Numbered from the whole stretch's first letter, positions 661-58,686 are shown. The stretch is DNA of 63,275 nt, filler included, from Basidiobolus ranarum (GCA_040143965.1; 55 parts of 55 records of this genome joined end to end with filler, not necessarily neighbours in it); one strand, 5' to 3'. Notes: a model not told the origin generated them from the sequence alone. Numbers and translations: made by a program.

Positions 661-948
661 ACTTTTAGCAGGTTATGAGCCTATTTTATTGACCTGTGCT
701 GGAATAAGTCCAAAGTTGGGACTCATCAATATGGTAATCAGTGACGTTAATAAACTGATTGGATCTGATGGTTTGGGATAAGGGAACTACACTTCTATCA
801 TTATGCTATGTACATTGGAGGAGCAGAAGTTTGGTTGAAGTATTTACAGAAATGATATTTGATTTATTAATTTGGTTTGAATTTGTATGTATGATTATAT
901 CAAGAGAATATTCATTTTTAGATATTGAAATTGTTTAGGGAGAAATAT

Positions 949-1021
949 TGGTCTGGCCAGGATTTGAACCTGGGACCTCCTTCACTCTAGCAAGGTGCTC
1001 CAACCACTGAGCTACCAGTCC
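949..1021 (-). ncRNA. tRNA-like (Pol III A/B box) unit embedded in a repeat, copy 1
   Basis: rc = GGACTGGTAGCTCAGTGGTTGGAGCACCTTGCTAGAGTGAAGGAGGTCCCAGGTTCAAATCCTGGCCAGACCA. A box TAGCTCAGTGG, B box GGTTCAAATCC, perfect T stem CCAGG/CCTGG, acceptor stem 6 of 7 pairs. Confidence 0.75.
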
Positions 1022-1158
1022 TTGTATGCTATGCCTATATTGCTAGGGAACCTTAACCNNNNNNNNNNNNNNNNNNNNNNNNNNNNNNNNNNNNNNNNNN
1101 NNTTAATTAATTAANNNNNNNNNNNNNNNNNNNNNNNNNNNNNNNNNNNNNNNNNNNN

Positions 1159-3474: not shown

Positions 3475-4531
3475 AAACACTGCAAATCACCCTCAGTAGT
3501 GTCACACAAACACTCCAAAATTGTTTTAAATCAAATTTAACTTCACAATTTTATGATGGTAAGTAAACAGCTAATCCCATATGGATTAAAATTGTTATGG
3601 TTTCCTAAAATAACAATGCTCAAATTTCTGTTAGGGATGTATAGCAAGGGCTTCTAATATCTAAGCTTTGTGAAAGATGCAGCAGGGAATGTATTGAATA
3701 CCGGAATAGATTCTGCCTATCTTCTTTAAACCTGTAATAAAGTTTTTCATATCTAATAACAAAATCTTTGCTCCATGGCTGTATCTGCCTGAGATCTGCT
3801 AATGTGAGTTGATGCATATGAATATATTAACAATATTGACAAACAACTCCCAATGTTGCCAATTCTTATCAGGCAGAAATCTTTTCAAGATTCGCTTGAA
3901 AATATATTAATCCAATACTTCCAGTCTTTGCATTTGAATAAATGCCTAGATGAGTGGATATTTATGGGGGTCCTGGTAAAATATGATGGTATCTTGATAT
4001 TTTCAAGGATTTTTCCAGTCAAATCAAACTTTGATTCTATCCATAGTGGCTCATTCATATTGAACTTTCTACTGCATAGCTTAGTTAGTAGTATTGGAAT
4101 GTTGTTAAATAGTAAGTGCATAGTGCCTAATGGGAAGCTCTGGCTCCAGCTGATCACCTTTAGCAATATAATTTTTGGCTTACTGCTAATAACAAGTTTA
4201 ACATTAGAATGACTATTTGGTGAATATGATATCAGTGATCATGTTGAAATCTGACCGGGCTCTTGACAGTAAAATCATGGAGTTTAGTGCTTTATTTGGA
4301 TAGTAGTAATGCATATGCCTGTTGAAGCAAACTCCATTGATTTGACAAAATCTACAGCAAGATAGTGCATTGTGCCATTGAAAACCTCCAAATTTACTGA
4401 TGGCAGGAGTGTCACCAATGCATACAATGATATTAGCTTTAATAAAATATTCACCCATATGAACCCCATTAGATAACCATTCAAATTCCACAATCAAAGG
4501 CTCCAAGAAGCTATCTATAAGCACTGGTGAT
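3475..4531 (-). mobile_element. CMC TIR end (..TTTCTGTTAGGG at 3636) abutting a transposase catalytic/C-terminal fragment
   Basis: IGDTPAISKFGGF..HNALSCCRFC, GTMHLLFNNI and HSLLHL motifs. Confidence 0.8.
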
Positions 4532-7018: not shown

Positions 7019-8101
7019 GCTTTATCAGACTACTTACACTTCCCAATAGACTTCTCTCCATCCCAGTTCTCCCATCTGTAACTAACAGAGCAGCTAAAAA
7101 AGAAGATTGCAAAGGCAATATCTTAGCAAAATGAAAAATGGCTAAATACTAAGCTATATAAGACTATATAAGTGCTTAGGCAATGCTAATTTCAACAACA
7201 TATTCACATAAGACAGCATTTTGTACAAGAAAAAGTTCAAGACCAGAAAGTGGACACTATTCTCTATAGTTCCAAAATGTTGCTTGCAGATATATCACAA
7301 ACCAGTTAAAACTTCAAGTTTTAAGACATTAAGAGCAGGCATTGATATTAGTAAATATGAATGCAATGCGGAATAAGTATCAAAAAGAAGGTGTTGCATA
7401 ATCAACCATTATTCAACATCTTGGCTAACTTTAGTTATGATCCTATATCAGACACAAAAAAGAAAACATCCATGGCCCCTATATTCAAGCTTGGAGTATC
7501 TCTAAAACTATATAAACAGTATATCCTATTATAACCACTTATCTATTCTATATGGTACACAAGCTCCTAAATATCTGAAAAAATAAATGTACATCTCTGC
7601 CATGTAAACTGCCATATTCTCTCAAGTATAAAGTAAATACAAGACTATCCCAATTTAACTTTAATGTAAGAAGTCTACCCCACCATGTCAATATCCTCCA
7701 ATAAATATAATTATCAAACATGAAAAGTCAAAATGTGACTGTTGCTGGATGAAATAAGATTTTGAAAAGTAGTAGAAGGAAAGAAAAATATTGAGAGCAG
7801 CTTGAAAAAGAAACTTTATATTAGATTTGCAATCAACTAGGTGACTAGTGTACAACTCACTTCCATGTTGATAACAAAACTAAGACTGGCTTTAGAGCCA
7901 AAGCTGCCAAGAAAGTCGGCAAAGCCTTGGCTGACTCCAACTGAGCATGCTGCTCTGACAAAATCCTTGACTTACTAAGACAACTCCTCAAAAGACATAT
8001 GNNNNNNNNNNNNNNNNNNNNNNNNNNNNNNNNNNNNNNNNNNNNTTAATTAATTAANNNNNNNNNNNNNNNNNNNNNNNNNNNNNNNNNNNNNNNNNNN
8101 N

Positions 8102-11859: not shown

Positions 11860-12405
11860 GACCTGCAATAAAGTGCTATGTGTTGTGATGTTTCACATTT
11901 GTAACATTTGACAGTGCCCCTTTCTGGTTAGCTATTTTGAAAATAAAATGCTTGTGTAGTTTTTGTTTCATTGGCATGCTGACTTTTGTCTTGCCTTTTA
12001 AATTCTTCTTGACATAGACAAGTGATCAATAAATGCTGAGTAAGCATATCTGCAATTGCTTCCAAAGTGAGTACAAGGGCAAATATGATTTAGAGAGACC
12101 ATTGATTATGGTATGAATTATATCCATTTCAGGTACTTCATAGTTCACTGATTCCAGTTGTTGGGCTAATTTCTTGCACCATTTATATACGTCAAAATAT
12201 CTGAATCCTCAGTCATGCAAGAGTTTAAGATTTTTCTTAATAGCATCATCAAGTGAGCAAGCCATTTTTGCTCATGATGTTCCACTATGATTTCCCTTGC
12301 ATTATTGGTGGAGTCTGCATCACCAACTAGCATAAGTTGTTGTGATCCCAGTTTTGGACATATCTCCCTAAATGCCAATATGTCTTTTTCTTTGAAAGTT
12401 ATCCT
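11860..12405 (-). mobile_element. Decayed copia gag fragment
   Basis: Gag-like text (QQLMLV..A.....EHHEQK..A..MMLLRK) and a degenerate zinc knuckle. Confidence 0.55.
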
Positions 12406-12431
12406 TGTTGAAATTATTTAGGGAGAAATAT

Positions 12432-12504
12432 TGGTCTGGGCAGGATTTGAACCTGGGACCTCCTTCACTCTAGCAAGGTGCTGTAACCACTGAGCTACCA
12501 GTCC
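12432..12504 (-). ncRNA. tRNA-like unit embedded in a repeat, copy 2
   Basis: Near-identical to 949-1021. The enclosing repeat starts TGTTGAAATT at 12406. Confidence 0.75.
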
Positions 12505-12920
12505 TTGTATGCTATGCCTATATTGCTAGGGAACCTTAACCTAGTCTGTCAATGTATGGTACTATGGCATTTCAGCTTTACAAGCAACTGATTGGCCTTA
12601 GACTTTGTGTTCAGATGCAGTCACCNNNNNNNNNNNNNNNNNNNNNNNNNNNNNNNNNNNNNNNNNNNNTTAATTAATTAANNNNNNNNNNNNNNNNNNN
12701 NNNNNNNNNNNNNNNNNNNNNNNNNGATAAGCTGCTTTTCATCTGATTAAGTGCTTAAAGCTCATTTGTGGCTGTGATCAAGTCATCCACATATAGTGCC
12801 AATATAAGGATTCTATTTCTGGTTATTTTAATGTAAAGATTCTGATCTGCTGAGCATTTTTGGAATTTCAGTGACTTCAAATAGGTATTTAGCTTATTCT
12901 ACCATGCCCTAGGTGGTTGT

Positions 12921-16192: not shown

Positions 16193-17247
16193 TTCTTTGC
16201 AAACATGTATGATCATCCATTTGCATTGGCTCTCAATGGCTTCTCACTAAACAAATATACCATTGGAAAGGCTTACTGGCCAATAATTTCAATCAACTTA
16301 AATCTTCCTCCTTCTGAATGGTATAAGAGTCATAAATTTTTGATACTATCCATCAAATCTGGACCCAAATCACCAGTGTGCATAGATAGCTTCATGGAGC
16401 CTTTGATTGCAGAATTTGAATGGTTATCTAATGGGATTCAGATGAGTAAATATTTTATTAACACTAATATCATTTTATGTATATATGACACTCCTGCCAT
16501 CAGTAAACTTGGAGGTTTTTGCAGGCACAATGCACTATCTTGCTGTAGATTTTGTCAAATCAATGGAGTTAACTCTAACAGGCATACACATTACTACTAT
16601 CCAAATACGGCACTAAACTTCATGATTTTACCATCAAGAGCCTGTTCAGATTTCAACATGATCACTGATATCAATTCACCAAATAGTCAGTCTAACATCA
16701 AACTTGGTATTAACCATAAGCCTAAGATTATATTGCTAAAGGGGATCAGCTAGAGCCGGAGCTTCCCATTGGGCACTATGAACTTACCGTTCACAACATT
16801 CCAAAACTACTTACTCAGCTATATAGTGAAAAGTCAATATTAATGAGCCATTTGAGATAGGATCAAAGTTTGAATCAATTGGGAAAATGCTTGAAAATGT
16901 CAAGATACCATCATATTATACCAGGACTCCTATCAATATCCACTCTTCTAGGCATTTGCTCAAATGCAAAGACTGAAAGCATTGGATTTATATATATTCA
17001 AGTGGAATTTTGAAAAGATTTCAGCCTGATAAGTATTAGCAACATTGGGAGTTGTTTGTGGATATTGTTAATATATTCTTACAGCATCAACTCACACTGG
17101 CAGATCTCAGGCAGATACAGCAACTGTGCAAAGATTTTGTAATTGGATATGAAAAACTTTATTATAGGTTTAAAGAAGATATACTGAATATAAGCCAGTA
17201 TTCAATACATTCCCTGCTGCATCTTTCACAATGCTTAGAGATTATAG
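16193..17247 (+). mobile_element. CACTA/EnSpm-like transposase core (decayed)
   Basis: WPIISINLNLPP, SGPKSP..IDSFMEPL, DTPAISKLGGF..HNALSCCRFC, HSLLHL. Confidence 0.88.
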
Positions 17248-19657: not shown

Positions 19658-20711
19658 ATGTGTTGGACCATTAAGCCTACACAACAACCCAAAATTGCTT
19701 GGGCACATGAAAGTAGAAATCTCATAGGAAAACCAGCAAACCAAAAGACTCTGAATGTCAGAGCTGCCATCACTTGCTCTGATGATAAGTGGTTTAACAT
19801 TTTGGAAACTGTGCGGAATCTTGCCCAAAATCACTTAGATTTGAGTCAATTGTGGAAAAACTAAAAACCAGGTGCTACTCTGAAGGTTCTTGACATATTT
19901 CATGTGGCTTATCCTGGGTTTTTGCAAGCAAATGGCAATTGGGCTAGTATAGGCCTATTCATGAAGCATCTCAAAAATGTATGCAATTATCAATTTGGAA
20001 AAGAAAGAAAAGCAGCTAAAGAAGTACTGAAGGAGCAGGAAGTTCATAAACCTAAGGGAAAAGCAAAGGAGCCAGTGAGTTTGGGCTCTACTGTCCCACT
20101 TTCCAAATTCTTCACACCATAACAAAGATCTGCAATTCCAGAGTCGGATATACCGGCCAAAAAGCTTAATTTCACCATGGAACCGGATACACCAGTAGGA
20201 GGAGTGCTAAATTTGGAAGTTTATCCAACACCTGGCACCTCTCAACAAGCCAAAACACCAGCAAATAAAACTCATGGCTCTCCAACCTCAACTGGTACTT
20301 TTCAAAGTGTTGAAATTAGTCCCAAAGGTAAAGGCAAGCAACAAGCCACACAAACACTGCAAAGCACCCTCAGTAGTGTCATACTACAAGGACATATGAA
20401 AATAGTCAAAGCGCTTGAGGAGTATTTTCAAAAGTATGAAGGGAAAAATGCAGTTCAAGTATGCAGAAAGTGGCTTCAGAAGAAGAACATTCAACTTGAC
20501 ATTCTGTCTGGTGTTGACTGTGCAGATATCTGGGAAGAACTTAATACAAAGCCCTAACAGAAATTTGAGGATTGTTATTGAAGGAAAACCGTCACAATTT
20601 TAATCCATTTAGGATTGACCGTTTACTTACCGTCATAATATCGTCAAGTTAGATTTGATTTTAATCAATTTTTTCAGTTTCAGGAGTTAAATTTCAAGAT
20701 CTTGCAAAATA
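19658..20711 (+). mobile_element. CMC ORF2 middle/C-terminal part, interrupted by a CMC TIR end at 20552
   Basis: Homologous to 51898-52946; CCCTAACAGAAAT at 20552. Confidence 0.75.
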
Positions 20712-23556: not shown

Positions 23557-25646
23557 CAAAAGTAACAGAAGCAAGCAGCAGGTACTGCTTCAAACCTAGG
23601 CAACTGCTGAATATTCTTGTTAATACTTACATTATCCTATCTTTACTGTTTGGCGCATCATGCAAAATCAATATGTATCACAGTTTAATATAGTATAAAT
23701 TGCTTTAGTTAGATTACAATTGCTTATGTGTTTATGAAACACTGATAGTGTGAAATAGTCATATATCAAAAAGATCAATGATGGCCTATTAATACAAGCA
23801 GTTTCACTACAATCAAATGGAAAATATCTGTCAATAAAAAGCTTGCAAAGCCCTATTGGCTTGATATGGCTCAATCCGTTCACATTTTCACCCACTTAGA
23901 AGCTTACATGAATAAAGGAATAATTTGCTGATCTAAAAATGATGAATCAAACAATCCCAATCACTACTATTGTACTGCAGATTGATCCATCATTGAGTGC
24001 TGTCATTTTCACTGGTGTGCCAAAACTACTGGTGTTTTGTAATACAGGAGCTGTTGTGCCCAATTGAAAATCAGGATACTGTGGTAGTGGGGGCCAAATG
24101 ATAGGCCTAAAAATATGTGAATATCTTGATATACATTTCATTGCGTAAGCTACAGTACAAATTGTTTATTGTTNNNNNNNNNNNNNNNNNNNNNNNNNNN
24201 NNNNNNNNNNNNNNNNNTTAATTAATTAANNNNNNNNNNNNNNNNNNNNNNNNNNNNNNNNNNNNNNNNNNNNCTACCATTGATAGTACACTGAAATCTG
24301 ATTGGACAATAGCTTTTGTAGTAACAAAACAAATTGACTAGCTGCTTTCTGGTGGGTATTGGAGTATAGGAGCCACAGTATTTCTCAAATATAGCTTCTA
24401 AGGTGGTGATAGGAATGCCAGTAGTTGCTTTTGGATTAATGAGGGATGACTATTTAGAGTAGATGGAGAGCATGATATTAATCTTGTATTGAGCTGGCAC
24501 AATACTGATTGATCTGGCACTTGCAAGTTATTTATCTAAGAATTTCAATTAGCATGATAAAATTCTCTACATTCTGCTTGGTAAAATTTCTGTTTGCATT
24601 TATTATCCTAATTATTTCTATTATGTACAAAAGCATGGATATTATTTCATAAACTGCATCAGCAAAGTTAATCATAGTTTGATCCAATACAATGTATTTA
24701 GTGTACATATTAGACTTGTTCCATCAGACCAGGTCAGATCATGCCACTCAATCCAGCCTACTAGTACACAATCTGGTGCAATCTGTCAGTTACCATGGCT
24801 GGGTCCTATAACACTCAATTGGACACTATAAGGAACAATATGGCACTATCCAATCACAAATGGACACCATGATTTTATTGGATATATTGTGCCAGCCAGT
24901 ACCAAGTTACCCAATTTAGTATTGCAAAATTACAATTTTAGGAAACTGACAAAGTAAGTTCATCCCCTAGTTTGTAACTTACAAATTACTGAATGTGTAA
25001 CAATAGACAATGTATACTGTAACTTACCCAACCAAATGTATAAGTGAGACATTCACATGTTTTTAGGCCAATCATAAGTCCCTCACTACCACAGTATTCT
25101 GATTTTCAATTGGGCACAACAGCTCCTGCATTATGAAACACCAGTAGTTTTAGCTCACCAGTGACAAATCACAGCACTCAATGCTGGATCAATCTGCAGT
25201 ATGATAGTAGTGATCAGGATTGCTTGATTCATCATTTTTAGATCAGCAAATTATTGATTCAATAATGTAAGCTTCTAATTGGGTGAAAATGTCATGATTC
25301 TGATCTTGGCATACTGATCCACTGCANNNNNNNNNNNNNNNNNNNNNNNNNNNNNNNNNNNNNNNNNNNNTTAATTAATTAANNNNNNNNNNNNNNNNNN
25401 NNNNNNNNNNNNNNNNNNNNNNNNNNATGTAGAATGTGTCAAGGAAGGTCACAGGAACATGTGTGCCAAGTTTGGGACTTCTAGCACAAGTTCAAATAAT
25501 GCTATATATCTGAGAACTTCTAAGTTGGTAAAAAATATTCCAAGTAAATTGCAATTGAGAAAAATGGGTAATATCATAGTGAAATATAAGATAACTAAGT
25601 ACTATGCTATATATGACCATCTAGGTGTCTACACAATGGTAATTTC

Positions 25647-25994
25647 TGTTAAAGTATTTGGGAGCCTGTTGGAAGTGGTTTGGAGAATTAGAGGAATTGG
25701 TGGTTTTCACTTATTGATTTATTGAGTAGAAAGTTAACTTTTGTAGTTTTGTCAAGATGTAAAAAGACTAACATGCAGAATGTGTTAAGGAAGGTCCCAG
25801 AAACATGTGTGCAAAGTTTGGGGCTTCTAGCACAAGTTTGAAAAATCTATATATTTGAGAACTTTGAAGTTGGTGAAAATATTTCAAGTAAATTCCAATT
25901 GAGAATAATTGATAATATCTTAGTGAACTATAAGATAACTAAGTACTAAGCTATATATGACTATATAGGTGTTTAGGCAATGCTAATTTCAACA
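25647..25994 (-). mobile_element. Full copia LTR family B (348 bp), adjacent to a second partial LTR-B (25427-25646)
   Basis: TGTTAAAG...AATTTCAACA; same length as the PBS-flanked copy at 30650-30997. Confidence 0.88.
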
Positions 25995-26579: not shown

Positions 26580-27632
26580 AGGGCCATTCAGGGCCTCTTT
26601 TACAGTCTGGGGTTCATGTATTTGAGCTGTGCAGGCATAGGCCCAATTTTGGGACTCATTGATATAGTAATCAGGGCTATTTCTGATCCAATTTGATCCC
26701 CTGGTTTGGGATAAAGGTACTACAACTTCTGGCATTGTATTGGGCACCTCAGTAGGCAAAATATTGGTTGAACGGTCCATAGGAATGCTATTTTCTTCAT
26801 TGTTTTGGTTTGAATCAATTTGAATGATTGGATCAGGAGAAAGTTGATTTTTGTCATCATCTGAGATCATTTTGAGTGAAAATATTTCATTTTCATTAAA
26901 CAAAACATCCCTGGACTTGATTAACTTGGAAATTTTGGTATCATAGAGTCTGTAGGCCTTAGTTTGAGTACAATAACCCAGAAATATGCATTTCTTACTT
27001 TTTGGATCAAATTTAGACCAATTTTTGGTCATAATTTTGACATAAGCAATGCATCCAAAGATCCTCAAATGTTTTACATCAGGTTTAACTCCAAACCAAG
27101 CTTGATATGGTGTAGAGTTAGGCAGACTACTAGTAAAACTCCTATTCTTCAGATATACAGCTGTAGCAACAGATTCCGCCCAAAAGTTATGAGATAAATT
27201 TTGTGCATTTATCATAGATCTTGCCATTTCTATTATAGTCCTGTTAGCTCTTTCAGCAACTCCATTTTGTTGAGGTGAATAGGGAGCAGTAGTTTCTTGC
27301 TTAATTCCATGAACTTTGCAAAAGTGCTTAAATAGTGTTGAAGTATATTCTCCACCATTATCAGTACGTATTTTCTTGATTTTAGTTCCAGTTTCAGTCT
27401 CCACAAGTGTTTTAAAATCTCTAAAGATAGAGAGAGCTTCTTCTTTTCTTTCCATAAAGTAGACCCAAGTGTATCTTGTATAATCATCAATAAATGTGAT
27501 TAAATATCTTTTTCTGCCTAAAGATAAATTTTGCATAGGTCCACACATATCTGAATGAATTAGATCCAAATTTTTGACAGATTTGATTAAACCAGAGCTC
27601 TTGAACAGTTGCCTGGCTTGTTTTCCCTATAT
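26580..27632 (-). mobile_element. Copia integrase, open frame
   Basis: IHSDMCGP, FIDDYTR, RTDNGGEY, PQQNGVAERANRT, LRIFGC, KKCIFLGY. Confidence 0.95.
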
Positions 27633-27732: not shown

Positions 27733-28701
27733 GGAAGTGTCAGCCAGCATCTCAAAAATCCAGGATCTGAGCACAAAACTGTAGTAAAACAAATATTTAA
27801 GTATTTGAGAGGAACTGTAGATCAAGTTCTGGAATACTCTGCCACTCCTGATGCACAAAATTTTGAAGGCTACGGTGATGCAGACTGGGGAAGAAACCTT
27901 GATGATAGAAGATCAACAACTGGGTACACTTTTCTCTTTGGTAATGGAGCCATAACTTGGAATAGTAAGAAGCAACCAACCATAGCACTTTCCACTACAG
28001 AAGCAGAGTGTATGGCTGCCTTTGCTACTACACAAGAAGCTATGTGATTAAGGAAGTTATTTACAGACTTAGGTTACATGCAAAAACGTGCTATTAATGT
28101 ATTTGAAGATAATCAAAGTTGTATTTCATTAGCTAAAAACCCTACATTTCATGCTCGAACAAAACATAGAGATATTAGGCATCATTTTGTTAGAGAAGCA
28201 ATAGAGAATGATTTAATTGAACTCGTCTATTGCCCTAGTGAAGAAATGATAACTGATATCTTAACCAAACCTTTAGCTAAAGCACAATTTGAATCATTAA
28301 GATGTAAGTTAGGTTTAAGAGAAATACAAAATAATTAGTTGAGTGGGAATGTAGAAATTAGGTAAATAGCAACTCATTATTTAGTAGTTGATTTATTCAT
28401 ATTCTGATTATTTAGCACTCAATTCTTTCATTCAAAAATTTGTGTTTATTGCTCTAATTGATAGAAATATCAATTAGATCACTTTTACCAATTTTCACTA
28501 TTTTCTCAAAACTTTTCCAAATCACCTCAAATTTTCACCCATGCCTAACAGGCATGTTTGTTATGATCTAAGCATGTCCAATAGTCCTATTTCATAATAA
28601 ACTATAAATAAGACATATTCAATTCAATAAAACTTAAGTGTCTAATGCACAAATCCAAATCTTGTCCAAAACACCTCCAAATCCCCTAAACGCTGTTATC
28701 A
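27733..28701 (+). mobile_element. Copia RNase H, PPT (GAGTGGGAA) and 3' LTR-A (28350-28701), inserted in CMC transposase sequence
   Basis: DADWG..DDRRSTTGY, ALSTTEAE, EDNQSCI, HARTKH, DILTKPL; stop at 28338; TG...CA LTR. Confidence 0.92.
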
Positions 28702-28984
28702 GAGACAGGATCAAAGCTTGAATCAATTGGGAAAATGCTTGAAAATGTCAAGATACCATCATATTTTACCAGGACTCCCATCAATNNNNNNNNNNNNNNN
28801 NNNNNNNNNNNNNNNNNNNNNNNNNNNNNTTAATTAATTAANNNNNNNNNNNNNNNNNNNNNNNNNNNNNNNNNNNNNNNNNNNNTCTCAGGCTTGGTTG
28901 AGGAGACTGCAGGTGAGGATTTTTCAATGTTTTTCTCACTGATCAGGTTCTGGTGAGAAAAAGAAGAATTTTCATCAATTTTGT

Positions 28985-29937
28985 TCTCAGATATATAGGT
29001 TTGCAACCCTGTGCTAGAAGCCCCAAACATTGCACACATGTTCCTGGGACCTTCTTTAACACATTATAAGTGTTAGTTTGCTTATATTTTGACAAAACTA
29101 TATATGTCAGCTTTCTACTTGATAAATCAATAAGTGAAAACCACCAATTCCTCTAACCCTCCAAACTACTTCCAACATGCTCCCAAATACTTTAACAGGT
29201 TATGAGCCCCAAGCTTGCACTCTCAATAATGTCTACTTCTCAAATTATGGAACTCTTCCCTCTTCTGAAAAATTGGATGGAACCAATTATCAAGTTTGGA
29301 AAATAAAAATGAAAATGCTGCTGCAAGAAAAAGAACTTTGTGACACTGTTGTAGGAGAAGAAAACAATGCAAAACTATCTGAAGCCAAAGTTTTACTTGA
29401 GGTTAAAAAAGAACTCAGTGCCTTTGACACAATATGTCTTAATCTTAAAGACAAATTGCTAATTAAATGTTCCAGAGCTAAAACTGCCAAGAAGGTATGG
29501 ACAGCCTTGGAAGAAACCTATCAAGCAGGTTCTGCTGCTAACAAGATGTTTCTCAGAAGACAATTCTTTAAGTTAAACACAAAGCCAGCAGAAGAAATTA
29601 AATCACTATTTAATAGAGTCGTATTTTTTTGCCATATTGGTTTTAATTATTTGAGCAAAACAATTAAAAATTACCTAATTTCTGGAATTCAAATCAACCC
29701 CCCCAACCAAAATGGAAATTTATGAGGGTTGTATATATGGAAAACAAGCCAGGCAGCTGTTCAAGAGCTCTGGATTGATCAAATCTGTCACAAAATTGGA
29801 TCTAATTTATTCAGATTTGTGTGGACCTATGCAATACTTTTCTTTAGGTAGAAATAGATATTTAATCACATTTATTGATGATTATGAAGGATACACTTGG
29901 GTCTACTTTATGGAAAGAATAGAAGAAGCTCTCTCTA
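28985..29937 (+). mobile_element. Copia LTR-B end (29197), PBS (29198-29209), gag, then jump to integrase (internal deletion)
   Basis: TTTAACA-GGTTATGAGCCC; EKLDGTNYQVWKIKMKMLL; CIYGKQAR..SDLCGP. Confidence 0.88.
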
Positions 29938-33493: not shown

Positions 33494-34545
33494 AGTCCTG
33501 GTAAAATATGATGGTATCTTGATGTTTTCAAGCATTTTCCTAATCATTTCAAACTTTGATCCTGTCTCAAATGGCTCAGTCCTATTGAATTTTCCACTAT
33601 ATAGCTGAGTAAGTAGTATTAGAATGCTATTGAATAGTAAGTGCATAGTGCCTGATGGGAAGCTCTGGCTCCAGCTGATCCCCTTTAGCAATATAATCTT
33701 AGGCTTATGGCTAATACCAACTTTGATGTTAAACCAACCATTTTATGAATTGATATCAGTGATCATGTTGAAATCTGACCAGGCTCTTGACAGTAAAATC
33801 ATGGAGTTTAGTGTTGTATTTGGATAGTAGTAATGTGTATGCCTAATAAAGTAAACTTCATTGATTTGACAAAATCTACAGCAAGATAGTGCATTCTGCC
33901 CACAAAAACCTCCAATTTTACTGATGGCAGGAGTGTCACCAATACATACAATGACATTTGCTTTAAGAAAATATTCACCCATCTGAACCCCATTAGATAA
34001 CCATTCAAATTCCGCAATCAAAGGCTCCAAGTAGCTTGCTATAAGCACTGGTGATTTAGGTCCAGATATGATGGATAGTATCAAACATTATGACTCTTAT
34101 ACTGTTGAAAAGGAGGAAGATATAAGTTGATTAAAATTCTTGGCCAGCAAGCCTTTCCAATAGTATGTTTGTTTAGTGAGAAACCATCCAGAGCCAATGC
34201 AAATGCATGATCATATGTGTTCTCAAAGAAACCTTGACTTTTCAGATTCTGGTAGTGAAATCCATCAAGTATATTGGTAATACCATCAGCTTTATGGTGA
34301 GTACTTTGGTATTGGATTGATGATCTATATTTGGGTGATTTCATCAAAACTTCAAGATGGGGAATCAATGGTGTGTGAGCCAAATATGAACAATGTTTAC
34401 CTGATTCAGTGATTGCTAATTGTGTGCAAACAGTACATGACTTCAGGTTTTTCAGATCACCAGTGAAAGCCAAACAACCATTTGGATATGAAGGTAGTTT
34501 AATTACTGAAGGATTATAAGTCATACAATTGACAAGTGTTTTCCA
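33494..34545 (-). mobile_element. CACTA/EnSpm-like transposase (decayed)
   Basis: Same motif set as 16193-17247. Confidence 0.88.
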
Positions 34546-35799: not shown

Positions 35800-36117
35800 A
35801 TGACCTCTAATGCAGATCTTTGTGTTAATAGCAAATATTCAAAAGGAGAAGTGGAGAAAGGTTCCGTGTGAACAGCAATTGAACACGGGTTAGTTGATCC
35901 TAAGAGATAGGGAAGCTCTGTTCGAAAGCGTACAATTCACCGCACCACCTATCAATAGGGAATCAGGTTAATATACCTGAACCAGGATATGGATTATGCA
36001 TTACGGCAACGTAAATGAACTTGGAGATACCAGGGAAGAGTTTTCTTTTCTTTTTAACAGCTTATCACCCTGAAAACAGATTAACTGGAGCTAGAGTTCA
36101 ATAGCTGGTGGAGCACT
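35800..36117 (+). pseudogene. Degenerate 28S (LSU) rRNA fragment
   Basis: Recognisable LSU blocks GCAGATCTT..TAGCAAATATTCAAA, GAAAGGTTCC, GGGTTAGT.GATCCTAAGAGAT and TTTTCTT.TTAACAGCTTATCACCC, with deletions and substitutions. Confidence 0.85.
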
Positions 36118-36848
36118 ACTGAAAACTGATTCAAATCCTTTTCAAAGATGATGAGATATGCAATATTCAAATACTTGAATAGCAGTGACCCAAGAGTCTC
36201 GCTTGGCCACCGTCCTTTTTATTTGCAATTCTCGTTTCTCCACAAAGACCCATTATAAGAGGATCATTTTGTACACAGTTGAGCAATAAGCGTAAAGAGT
36301 CTGGATAAACTTTAGTGTCAGCATCTATCATGAGCGCAATTTTGAAATAATCTGGTATGACTCCCATTAAGTGATGCATCTTCTTGAAGAGATCGTAATG
36401 CAATGGGGTCATGTGATCGTTATAGGTAACTCGGCTAAAGAAGTTCAAGATGATTTGCGAATCACGTTTACCTCTATTGCCAGGTCTAGGAGCACTTTGT
36501 TCTTCTGGAGTACCACATTTGACTACCACATTTGACTACCACAATTGTTAGTACTCTACGACCTTTGTGATTGAAGTGTCCAGCATATTCTTTTGCCATG
36601 TTGTGTTGTTTCGCACCTGCAGCAACTGCGATATAACTCATAGGTTCAGCATTTTCAAAAGCTGGATCAATTTCTAAGAGGTCAGTGCAAATGTTAGGTG
36701 TACTATGATCATTTCCACTACCAGTGATCATGCCATAAGCGACTATGTATAGTAGTTTATGGTCGTCACCATATTCTGTGGATGCCAGTCTTTCATTTGT
36801 TGAGCATATAGAACTTCCCCTTTGGAGTAGCTTGTGACTTATAGAATA
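36118..36848 (-). pseudogene. Chitin synthase catalytic-domain fragment (division II type), frameshifted
   Basis: [53 protein letters not shown]; a 13-bp tandem duplication at ~36513-36543 shifts the frame. Confidence 0.9.
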
Positions 36849-37712: not shown

Positions 37713-38906
37713 CAATATATGATCTAACAGGCTATTCTTCGATCTGTTATTAACATGAATACTGAAATATCCGATTGAAAAAAAAATATCCACCTGAGAA
37801 ATGATGAACAGAATATTTCAAGGTGTTAACAAGGTATCATGCCTGGTTTTACTGTTTTGCATAACATCGAGACAGTGTTGGACGATAGCATTCCTGTTAC
37901 TACTCACAAATGATTAAGCTAAGCCACAACCGCCTCGTGGCGTGAGTATTGATAGTACAGCGGTTGGACATATCGCATTGGATTGAACTTGAAGTTTATN
38001 NNNNNNNNNNNNNNNNNNNNNNNNNNNNNNNNNNNNNNNNNNNTTAATTAATTAANNNNNNNNNNNNNNNNNNNNNNNNNNNNNNNNNNNNNNNNNNNNC
38101 TATGGATACATTGCTTTCTGTTTCTGATATATGTATCATAACTAAAGTTAACTATGATGTTGAGTAAAGATTAGTTATCCAACAGTGAGTCCAATATATT
38201 TTGGCTGAATATTTGATAAAAATTTGACAAAATTGAGGTGCTTGTTCAAATCATCAGTGATGGTGATAATATGAATCAGCTACTTGCCAAATAACAGTAT
38301 TATTCTAATATCAGATTTTCAACAACTTGTTAAGTATTAGTTTGTGGCAAAGAGTATTGTTATTATAGAGATGTCTATAACAAATCAATAATGTGCATAC
38401 ATTGAGACCTAACACCAGAAGATGCTACTGTTTCTTAATTCTCTTAATGGCAGGAATATATGGCCAAAAGGCAATAATGTGGTTTATTTAAATTTATAAT
38501 GCAGCTGACCAAGAACAATTCCTGCTGAAAAAGGAATTTTTGATCAATTTGCATGATATTGAAAGATGCTCAATACTTTGACATGACTAAATACCATTAA
38601 TTTGCCACATTTAGACTGTCACTAACTCTGACAAAATACAAGCAGGCCAATTGGTAAAGGTTCTCAGATGTGATCCCTCCAAGTAATGGTTCATCCAAAC
38701 CAGATTGACTTGATTTTATTTTGTCAGGATGTCGAGTGGAGTTAGCACAAGTATTACTAAGCATTGTTATTTATTTTATTGGCAAAGAGAAAAGATACAT
38801 ATATAGGTATATATCTTTCTAAGAATGTGCCATCTTAGACTGCTTCTTTGTTGATAAGTAATTTTGTATTTTCTATGTAAACTTCATTACATAACTACAC
38901 AGAATT

Positions 38907-38979
38907 GCCCCTGCAACTCAGTGGAAAGAGTGTTTCTTTCCAGATGAGAGAATTGTGGGTTCAACCTCCACCTTGGTTG
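38907..38979 (+). pseudogene. Degenerate tRNA-like sequence (possible CCA anticodon)
   Basis: CAACTCAGTGGAAAGAGTG A-box region, TTCCAGA loop, GGGTTCAACCTCC B-box region; stems imperfect. Confidence 0.4.
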
Positions 38980-39250
38980 TTTTGCATGGGAAAAGTTGCA
39001 AATTTGGAAGCTTAACACCTTTATTGCTACTTGACATTGGGATGTGATAGTAAATTGCTCAAAACATTCAAACCCTACTCAAGCTATCCATATGTCTAGA
39101 AGATCAAAACTGGGCGCCAGATCTCAGCTAAGCAAATTTGATGACATCTTNNNNNNNNNNNNNNNNNNNNNNNNNNNNNNNNNNNNNNNNNNNNTTAATT
39201 AATTAANNNNNNNNNNNNNNNNNNNNNNNNNNNNNNNNNNNNNNNNNNNN

Positions 39251-47302: not shown

Positions 47303-47695
47303 TGGGTCTTCGATACAGGCAACTCTCAATAGAACAGAGTCCGTATGGAGCAGAATGGCTCATTTATTGAGCGCAAGACATTCCCTCAACTTCCCTGGGG
47401 TCATATCAAAAACCCCAGCTACATCAAGACTGCTCACGGTAACTTGTTATTGACTAGTGGCTGGTGGGGTATTGTCCGTAAGCCTCATTACACTGCCGAT
47501 TTAGTCATGGCCTTATCATGGGGCTTAATTACCGGTTTTGGTTCATTTGTGCCCTACTTTTATTTCTGCTTTTTCATTGTTGTCTTGATTCATCGTGTTT
47601 CTCGCGATATGGAGAGATGTGCTAAGAAGTACGGCAAAGACTGGGAACGTTATTGTGAACGTGTTCCATACATTTTTGTTCCCTATATCTTCTAA
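47303..47695 (+). CDS. ERG4: ERG4/ERG24-family sterol reductase C-terminus (ERG4-like); in-frame TAG at 47330
   Basis: RKTFPQLPW, LLTSGWWG..RKPHYTAD, LIHRVSRD..RC.KKYGKDW.RYC..VPY.F.PY. Confidence 0.88.
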
Positions 47696-48173: not shown

Positions 48174-48350
48174 TGTTGAAATTAGCATTACCTAAGCACC
48201 CATATAGTCATATATAGCTTAGTACTTTGTTATCTTATATTTCACTATGATATTACCCCTTATTCTCATGCGGAATTTACCTAGAAGTTCTCAGATATAT
48301 AGATTTTTCAAACTTGTGCTAGAAGCCCCAAACTTGGCACACATGTTCCT
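48174..48350 (+). mobile_element. LTR-B 5' part
   Basis: Starts TGTTGAAATTAGCATT. Confidence 0.8.
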
Positions 48351-55343: not shown

Positions 55344-56391
55344 TGTTCTAAATTGGATCCAAAAATTAAGAAATGCATATTGCTGGGTTATTGTACTCAA
55401 ACTAAGGCCTACAGACTCTATGATACCAAGATCTTCAAGTTAATCAAGTCCAGGGATTTATGCTTAATGAAAATGAATTAATGTCTCTTGCAATGCCCTC
55501 AGATGATGGCCAAAATCAATTTTCTCCTGATCTAACCATTGAAAACAATTTAAACAAAAGCAATAACAAAAATAGCATTCCTGTGGATCCTCCAACCAAA
55601 TTTTGCCTATTGAAGTGCCCAGTACAATGCCAGATGTTGTGGTACCTTTATCCCAAACTATGAGACCAAATTGGATCAGAAATAACCCTAATTACTATAT
55701 TAATGCATCCTAATATTGGTCCTATGCCTGCACAGCTCAAATAAATGAGCCCTAGACTGTCAACAAGGCCCTGAATGGCCCTCACACATAATGTTGGAGA
55801 TCTGCAGTGGCTGATAAGTACCAGGTTTTGATTGATAATCAAACAGTATTTTAACCAACTTACCTGATGATGGAAGATGAATTGGCAGCCAATGAGTTTT
55901 TAAAGTTAAATATAACTCTGATTGCAATATAGAAAGGTACAAGGCTAGACTAGTAGCCAAAGTCCATACTCAAACACCAGGAATATATCCTATGAAACTT
56001 TTGCTCCTGTAGCAAAGTTTAACTTAATTAGATTGATTTTAGCAATTTCAGCAAAATAGCTGTTTGTTATATATCAAATGGATGTTAAACTACTTTTTTG
56101 AATGTTGAGCTTGCTGAGAAGATCTATATGGACCAGCCAGATGGATATCTGGGCCCAGAAAGCCATAAAAAGTTTCAGACTCTGGAAAACACTATTAGGC
56201 TTAAAACAATCTCCAACATCTTGCATTAGTAAGATATACACCTTCTTCGATACACTCAAATTCCAAAATAGTAATGCTGACTATAGTGTCAACTTCAGGC
56301 CAGATAAGACAAACTAAGTTTTATTAGCCTGATATGTAGAAGACCTTATTATAGCAACTAAGGACTTGGTGACTGTGGAGAAAACTAAATC
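55344..56391 (+). mobile_element. Decayed copia integrase-RT
   Basis: KCILLGY, YKARLVAK, ETFAPVAK, GLKQSP. Confidence 0.88.
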
Positions 56392-57639: not shown

Positions 57640-58686
57640 GCATTCCCGGTTCTTTGGCTTGATGATCTTTGGTGACCGTGGCTCTTGATATCCTGTCAAG
57701 CAGTAAATCAAGCCATAAGGATCACTCCATCCATCTGTATTATACACAATCTCCTGTCGTTTGGCGGTGACGAAGTATTTCCGCTCCCCAGATACTTTGG
57801 ACTTGAATTTATGAACAGATGCTGGGTAACCCTTAGCCGTTCTAGTCGAGGTTGGTGTATGGGCAAATCTATATCTGGCGACATCTCTCAAAAATGTAGA
57901 GTGATAGAAGGAAGAAGTTCTACTTTGAGAGCCTGGGATTCTGGGTAAATGCTTTTGAGTAGTATCGTAAACTCGTGTAATACCCCAACCACCCAACCAT
58001 AAATCATCAACGCCACCAAGTTTGTACAGATGATCACCAGCACTGTAATCAGCCTGAACTCGGAAAGTGAAGCCTTCAGAAATACCAATAGTCTGCTGAC
58101 TAGTGACATTAACATTCGCAAGATCTCGGAATTTTTGCCAACGCATCCCGTGCATTTCAAAGCTGTGTGGCTTATCATGGGCACCTTGGACCAGACGTAC
58201 GATAATATTGTCTCCACGATAGGCTTCGAATAAGGGTGTTGATGGATCTCCATACTTATTCCTGCTACTAAACCATTGTGAAGGATCTAACCCTTTCCTT
58301 TCAATCAATGGCTCATTTCTATAATTCATTACGACAATACCTTGATCCAAGCGTTGGTTTTGAGCAGCTGGAGGGTTAATTGCGGTACCGTTAGCATAGA
58401 ATGCTGGAGTAAAATCACCGATGAAAATGACTTGTTCTCTGAACGATTCCTCGGGGCCAATAACCACCGCGCTAGAATTATGGCGTTGTTCTTGGTTTAA
58501 ATTCAGCGGGTTCAAAAACTTGGCACCAGCAGGCGCCACAGGTGCTATCCCATACAAACCTTTCTTTTGGCGATAATTAGCAAATAGATGGTCATGGAAG
58601 AAGACATGGCCCAGAGCATCATCAATCCACCAACGATTAATCAGATACTTTCCAAATCTTGCACCACTGATGTAATTCCAACCAAC
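57640..58686 (-). CDS. Multicopper oxidase, MnxG-like bacterial-type, internal fragment open across the contig
   Basis: VGWNY, FFHDHLFAN, GDPSTPLFEAY.GD..VRLVQGAH..PHSFEMHG.RW, QQTIGISEGFTF, GDHLY, LWLGGWG, IVYN..G..DPYG; no stops or introns. Confidence 0.75.

Follow-up and report, generated by a model that had tools for sequence, protein, structure and literature searches.

A tRNA-bearing repeat in fungal contigs is a probable Helenus-type LTR end

Two contigs of a fungal sequence window carry near-identical copies of a repeat that is probably the 3'-terminal part of a Helenus-type (TRIMp3) LTR with a tRNA-derived Pol III unit, placed on the minus strand in both. This assignment is drawn from sequence comparison. 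Helenus elements are TRIMs with LTRs that contain a sequence of tRNA origin, in which boxes A and B are conserved (Kojima 2024, Biology 13:119, PMC10886601). The kind of element has thus already been described, and what is new here is a probable member in another fungal lineage. Fungal Helenus comprises 113 families from Pucciniales and a few from Agaricomycetes, for which the text of that paper names Agaricus, Coprinopsis and Amylostereum and its Table 1 has the first two.

The window, by which we mean the whole stretch of DNA analysed (63,275 bases), consists of 55 separate contigs of 1,047-1,058 bp, joined through N runs around TTAATTAATTAA. Its repeat content is very high: an all-against-all BLASTN returned 348 between-contig match rows, with pairs counted both ways. 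Many of the contigs carry copia domains (gag, integrase, RVT_2). Against this background, ARAGORN predicts exactly two tRNA-like genes among the 55 contigs. They lie on the minus strand at 949-1021 and 12432-12504, and each is called 'Ser, anticodon aga'. Each unit is 73 nt long and lies above the gathering score of 29 for the Rfam tRNA model (RF00005), with 54.9 bits for the unit in copy 1 and 45.2 bits for that in copy 2. The A box (TAGCTCAGTGG) and the B box (GGTTCAAATCC) are intact in both.

In the Rfam alignment, the copy 1 unit is a class-I cloverleaf with the anticodon AGA and a variable region of 5 nt, without the long arm of the Ser type. Two of its pairs are non-standard; one belongs to the acceptor stem, the other to the anticodon stem. 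The copy 2 unit departs from it by two changes in the D arm and one mismatch in the T stem, so the perfect T arm reported in the initial annotation is found in copy 1 and not in copy 2. The rest of that description, namely two near-identical 73-nt units with A and B boxes and an AGA triplet that lacks a Ser-type long variable arm, agrees with our results. The first T4 on the tRNA strand is met 314 nt downstream of the unit in copy 1 and 235 nt downstream in copy 2, in the present flanks. We infer that the unit is not a working tRNA, because a Ser anticodon (AGA) sits on a class-I body, two stem pairs are mispaired and no T4 follows within 230 nt. Helenus tRNA-like units are mostly non-functional, and in rusts hundreds of spurious tRNA predictions, 'tRNA-Ser-AGA' included, are due to them (Table 2 of PMC10886601). 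The window repeat resembles them in that 'Ser-AGA' is predicted for a unit without a Ser arm.

The repeat as a whole spans 923-1058 (copy 1) and 12406-12541 (copy 2), both read on the minus strand, and 131 of 136 positions are identical between the two. Three of the five differences fall in the tRNA-like unit and two in the 26-nt tail that leads from the tRNA 3' end to the terminus (923-948 in copy 1). Ahead of the tRNA 5' end lie 37 nt (1022-1058), a probable part of U3, without any difference. On the minus strand the tail reads AATATTTCTCCCTAAATAATTTCAACA, with the ending ...CAATTTCAATA in copy 1; its longest T run is T3, so there is no run of four or more. At the other side of the tail the homology stops sharply, 26 nt past the tRNA 3' end, and the left flanks beyond 923 and 12406 are unrelated. 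Both contigs end inside the repeat, so that one flank and one repeat end are present per copy. The shared sequence could be followed only to 1058 and 12541, contig 1 ending at 1058. Copy 2 had been given as 12406-12625, and the first 136 nt of that interval are confirmed by homology; the remaining 84 nt up to the contig end (12542-12625) match nothing else in the window and are best described as possible U3. We considered and rejected position 12582 as an LTR 5' end (on the minus strand TGTAAAGC...), since no purine tract lies ahead of it and its flanking 5-mers differ.

No third copy of the repeat was found in the 55 contigs of the window, either by BLASTN or by a sensitive BLASTN of 12406-12625. 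Exact-pattern scans of metagenome contigs returned 0 loci for a 23-mer spanning the junction of the tRNA 3' end with the tail and 0 loci for a 24-mer of the anticodon/T-arm region.

Could the repeat be a SINE derived from a tRNA, or else a functional tRNA gene whose flanks are conserved? Its tRNA-level score and its A and B boxes are what such a reading would lead one to expect, and in these boxes the repeat is indeed like SINE2. Unlike SINE2, it has conserved sequence upstream of the tRNA start, an LTR-type terminus and no LINE-type or A-rich tail. The conserved upstream part is at least 37 nt long and identical at 37 of 37 positions, which upholds the early claim that this is no simple SINE head, and the conserved downstream part measures just 26 nt. 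A SINE-type poly(A) or simple-repeat tail, which had been named beforehand as one sign that would speak against an LTR, is absent downstream of the tRNA in both copies. A working gene is opposed by AGA (Ser) without a long variable arm, by the two non-standard stem pairs and by the lack of T4 within 230-310 nt downstream. We regard both versions as highly improbable.

The terminus of the repeat is an LTR-type end. On the plus strand it reads TATTGAAATT at 923 and TGTTGAAATT at 12406; on the minus strand, the visible repeat end is ...CAATA in copy 1 and ...CAACA in copy 2, where the last bases ...AATTTCAACA correspond to TGTTGAAATT on the plus strand. The exact 10-mer TGTTGAAATT occurs 8 times in the window, compared with a mean of 0.64 in 100 shuffles (largest count 3), a 12-fold excess. 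It opens two families of copia LTRs, and the claim that the repeat shares its terminus with both of them is therefore sustained.

Family A is ~352 nt long, ends ...TTATCA and is opened by the 10-mer at 201 (-), 8307 (-), 13270 (-) and 28350 (+), in two cases with one mismatch. At two sites it lies behind the C-terminus of copia pol and a purine-rich tract, where a 3' LTR belongs; the copy at 28350-28701 (+), a 3' LTR with these two features ahead of it, starts TGTAGAAATTAG (TGTTGAAATTAG in other copies) and ends ...GTTATCA. Family B is ~349 nt long, ends ...ACTTTAACA and is opened by the 10-mer at 7197 (-), 25994 (-), 48174 (+) and 61677 (-); the copy at 25646-25994 (-) starts TGTTGAAATTAGCATTGCC and has the same ending. 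In two other contigs the end of family B runs directly into GGTTATGAGCCC. One of them (28886-29937) has the family B end, then GGTTATGAGCCC as a PBS at 29198-29209 (+) directly after the LTR, and then a copia gag ORF. According to PMC10886601, this PBS type is also that of most fungal Helenus elements and their copia partners. The 12-mer TGTTGAAATTAG is present at 20308 and 11458 as well.

A one-mismatch copy of the copia PBS, GGTTATGAGCCT, lies at 671-682 (+) in contig 1, after ...CTTTTAGCA and between two copia fragments of opposite orientation. It may be the remnant of an LTR/PBS junction or a chance match.

Both copies of the repeat sit in decayed copia sequence, as had been noted. The flank of copy 1 (689-919, minus strand) shows 70% nucleotide identity to copia pol in the contigs at 26580-27632 (there 26622-26852) and 55344-56391, and corresponds to ~aa 715-792 of the polyprotein, the frame being set by tblastn of P0140 on 26580-27632. 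This pol homology stops at ~919. The flank of copy 2 (12083-12405, minus strand) is decayed copia gag, ~aa 72-182, with tblastn matches to P0156 of 32% over 81 aa and 42% over 31 aa (E 1e-10). Here the gag sequence begins at ~aa 72 directly at the repeat end, with no PBS between. Since the two flanks come from separate parts of the polyprotein, the repeat has moved, or was moved, to unrelated places; with pol homology that ends at ~919 on one side and gag on the other, both copies are insertions into other elements. No PBS-like sequence follows the visible repeat end in either copy, which suggests that both are 3' or solo LTRs.

On the minus strand, copia coding sequence in the same orientation directly follows both copies (from pol ~aa 715 and gag ~aa 72), without a PBS or leader between. 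Such an arrangement in both copies has a chance of 1 in 4.

These edges and flanks bear on a reading in which the repeat is no LTR at all. A tRNA pseudogene locus and its flanks could have been spread by segmental duplication or within another kind of repeat (a DNA transposon or an unclassified one), with an edge that looks LTR-like by chance. There are just two copies, each cut by a contig end, and two fragments that end inside the repeat contain no PBS, PPT, TSD or second LTR, which leaves room for this account. However, the edge is the exact 10-mer that is enriched 12-fold and found at verified LTR ends, the copies interrupt copia coding sequence at unrelated positions, and the layout mirrors published Helenus LTR ends, as far as these are represented in the consensus sequences of PMC10886601 that we compared. 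A non-LTR origin is in our judgement quite improbable. We infer that the repeat is of LTR nature, and the boxes A and B by which Helenus is recognised are found in both of its copies. The initial annotation had proposed an LTR with a captured tRNA promoter. That proposal is supported in kind by the sharp LTR-type end and the nested position of the copies; as a novelty it does not stand, being preceded by Helenus (PMC10886601).

Its chosen model, Cassandra, is not the only precedent. Cassandra TRIMs are a plant lineage with a 5S rRNA-derived Pol III unit in their LTRs, as summarised in PMC10886601. The window repeat is comparable to them, on the basis of that summary, in having a Pol III unit of the small-RNA type in the LTR of an element, but differs in that this unit is tRNA-like: the Rfam search identifies a tRNA, and no 5S rRNA match of the repeat is found in it even at E up to 5. 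Helenus is the exact fungal precedent (PMC10886601).

Published Helenus elements are 311-1263 bp long as a whole and consist of two LTRs around a short non-coding interior. Their LTR termini are 5'-TG...CA-3'; a PBS is located after the 5' LTR and a PPT ahead of the 3' LTR. The fungal ones have 5-bp target site duplications and are apparently mobilised by copia elements (all PMC10886601). We compared the layout of the window repeat with ~55 Helenus LTR consensus sequences from DataS1 of that paper, by eye and by exact-word look-up and not by alignment. In these consensuses the tRNA-like unit has sense orientation and occupies the 3' part of the LTR; behind it comes a tail of mostly ~14-65 nt (almost absent in one family) that usually has a T run. 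The LTRs start tgt..., many of them with tgttgaa and two with tgttgaaat, and nearly all end ...ACA; that of Helenus-2_PTrit ends ...aatttcaaca. Read on its minus strand, the window repeat likewise has upstream sequence, a sense tRNA-like unit and a 26-nt tail. Its ending resembles that of Helenus-2_PTrit, and its one visible terminus (...CAACA in copy 2) would fit the TGTTGA... / ...CAACA type of the consensuses compared.

Two differences from the published elements concern the unit and its tail. In many rust Helenus families additional sequence lies behind the anticodon loop, whereas the window unit is compact at 73 nt, and most have T4 in the tail where the window repeat has T3.

On the minus strand, the repeat would accordingly be laid out as U3-like sequence of 37 nt or more (perhaps 121 nt or more), the sense 73-nt tRNA-like unit, and the 26-nt tail ...TTTCAACA as the LTR 3' end. 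We orient the repeat in this way, with the visible end as the LTR 3' end and the unit in sense, because the published Helenus LTRs among the consensuses of DataS1 place a sense unit in their 3' part. The initial annotation had described the unit as antisense and 26 nt from the terminus. The distance is correct, and the orientation is probably the reverse, judged by the same published layout.

The mirror orientation would have an LTR that starts on the plus strand with TGTTGAAATT, with the tRNA-like unit antisense and 26 nt inside the 5' end of U3. It draws on the local elements: the repeat terminus TGTTGAAATTAT agrees in 11 of 12 bases with TGTTGAAATTAG, the LTR 5' end of families A and B, and the local LTR 3' ends (...TTTAACA, ...TTATCA and ...CCCAATA, with the reverse complements TGTTAAAGTA, TGATAACAGC and TATTGGGAAA) fit that terminus less well. 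But LTR ends are imperfect inverted repeats. The mirror orientation also implies Pol III transcription that points outward, and an outward-facing promoter would yield no replicative RNA. Such a variant is not seen in the ~55 LTR consensuses of PMC10886601 compared by eye, all of which have the unit in sense and in the 3' part, and the ending ...aatttcaaca of Helenus-2_PTrit in the same data shows that the 10-mer suits a 3' end too. We consider the mirror orientation fairly unlikely.

A further alternative keeps the LTR and changes the element: the repeat could be a tRNA-bearing LTR of a long element, either an autonomous copia or a large non-autonomous derivative, and so not a strict Helenus. 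Both copies run on the minus strand into copia coding sequence of the same orientation (gag ~aa 72, pol ~aa 715), and the LTR may exceed 220 nt. Yet there is no PBS or leader from the LTR end to the coding sequence, the polyprotein regions represented by the two coding fragments differ, as nested insertions predict, and two like orientations would arise by chance in 1 of 4 cases. A long element seems unlikely, and the preferred reading remains a Helenus-type LTR end nested in copia sequence.

One other origin of the tRNA-like unit was rejected. In primer read-through, a whole tRNA would be copied beside the LTR during plus-strand synthesis; the orientation fits, but ATAT adjoins the tRNA 3' end, not TGG as expected from a CCA end.

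If the repeat is a Helenus-type LTR end, its life cycle can be sketched by analogy with Helenus and Cassandra. The tRNA-like unit would serve as an internal Pol III promoter. Transcripts would start near the +1 position of the tRNA in the upstream LTR, pass through the weak T3 tail, and could be reverse-transcribed and integrated by copia proteins given in trans. The copia elements of the window may be those that mobilise the repeat family in trans.

Ty1, Ty3 and DGLT-A are LTR elements that insert beside host tRNA genes, and the window repeat can be compared with them in that LTR ends are closely tied to tRNA genes. Unlike in these elements, the tRNA-like unit of the window lies inside the repeated unit and moves with the repeat.

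The tRNA part of the repeat shows similarity to published families. Exact-word look-up in the DataS1 sequences of PMC10886601 finds a 23-nt run of the repeat (GAGGTCCCAGGTTCAAATCCTGG) in Helenus-4_CroRib and Helenus-16_CroRib, two Cronartium families, and inspection by eye shows a likeness to the Cronartium Helenus group and the Agaricus family in those data, both in the acceptor-stem halves and around the A box. This similarity could reflect capture of the same host tRNA instead of common descent. Kojima proposed that Helenus originated by the insertion of a SINE2 into an LTR (PMC10886601). That the tRNA module of this non-Dikarya fungus is homologous to that of the rust and agaric Helenus, and was not captured independently, is doubtful. 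If it were so, TRIMp3 would predate the split of the major fungal phyla, or would have been transferred horizontally together with copia partners.

A third, weak tRNA-like match lies at 38907-38979 (+), with 25.3 bits and E 0.63 for the Rfam tRNA model, under the gathering score of 29. TGTTGATAAG is found 58 nt upstream of it, TTTT directly after it and ...GCTTAACA 38 nt downstream. The stretch 38849-39017 is single in the window, and its flanking 5-mers, TTCTT and CCTTT, differ. A second Helenus-like family may be represented here by a decayed solo LTR.

Two coding regions speak to the host. A multicopper oxidase frame at 57640-58686 (-), 349 aa, is 87% identical to a protein from Basidiobolus ranarum and 79-80% identical to two from B. 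meristosporus. For the C-terminus of an ERG4/ERG24 sterol reductase at 47333-47692 (+), identity is 93% to Zychaea mexicana and 74-89% to other Mucorales and Umbelopsis; no Basidiobolus protein is found among the best 120 matches. The coding GC of the two is alike (0.43-0.46), and non-coding and TE sequence has ~0.29-0.36. The ERG4 contig also holds the family B LTR at 48174, and a series of common repeats with 85-93% identity connects family B to the contigs with the tRNA-bearing repeat. Either two fungi may be mixed in the window, or it may stem from a lineage without a close reference. Matches of a copia integrase fragment have ~36-55% identity and are mostly unnamed or from plants, and the named ones include no rust fungus; these low identities seem to fit a poorly sampled lineage. 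By its protein matches, the host appears to be a 'zygomycete'-grade fungus outside Dikarya, unlike the Pucciniales and few Agaricomycetes that make up the published fungal range of Helenus (PMC10886601).

The Helenus screen took its seeds from Repbase and reached no further than relatives of the seed genomes, which leaves the early-diverging fungi without a systematic survey (PMC10886601). In the literature, judged by titles and the starts of abstracts, we found no report of Helenus or TRIMp3 in early-diverging fungi; apart from Kojima's paper, Helenus is mentioned in a sugar beet study and in a review of rDNA and TEs. If full copies confirm the assignment, the fungal range of LTR elements that bear a Pol III promoter would extend beyond Basidiomycota, and a second fungal lineage would be available for testing transcription of the tRNA unit and mobilisation by copia. 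The repeat opens no new class of element. Both tRNA predictions in the window come from it, and in TE-rich fungal genomes Helenus-type repeats add false 'Ser-AGA' genes to the tRNA counts, an effect documented in rusts (PMC10886601).

Other contigs of the window carry features of separate interest. The multicopper oxidase at 57640-58686 is of a large bacterial type whose relatives measure 1,200-1,450 aa, some of the bacterial ones being named manganese oxidase or CotA-like. The only close eukaryotic relatives in the search are from Basidiobolus, plus one chytrid protein at 38%. Judged from these matches, it looks like a gene family acquired from bacteria. A eukaryotic LSU rRNA fragment at 35854-36233 (+) scores 145.9 bits over model positions 1499-1867 and shares 64 nt with a chitin synthase frame at 36170-36848 (-; Chitin_synth_2, E 5e-45). 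This contig may be chimeric, or an rDNA fragment may have been inserted beside the gene. Fragments of a tnp2/CACTA-type transposase (Transposase_21) are found at 16193-16750, 33746-34087 and 4216-4530 and belong to a repeat family common to many contigs at 83-91% identity.
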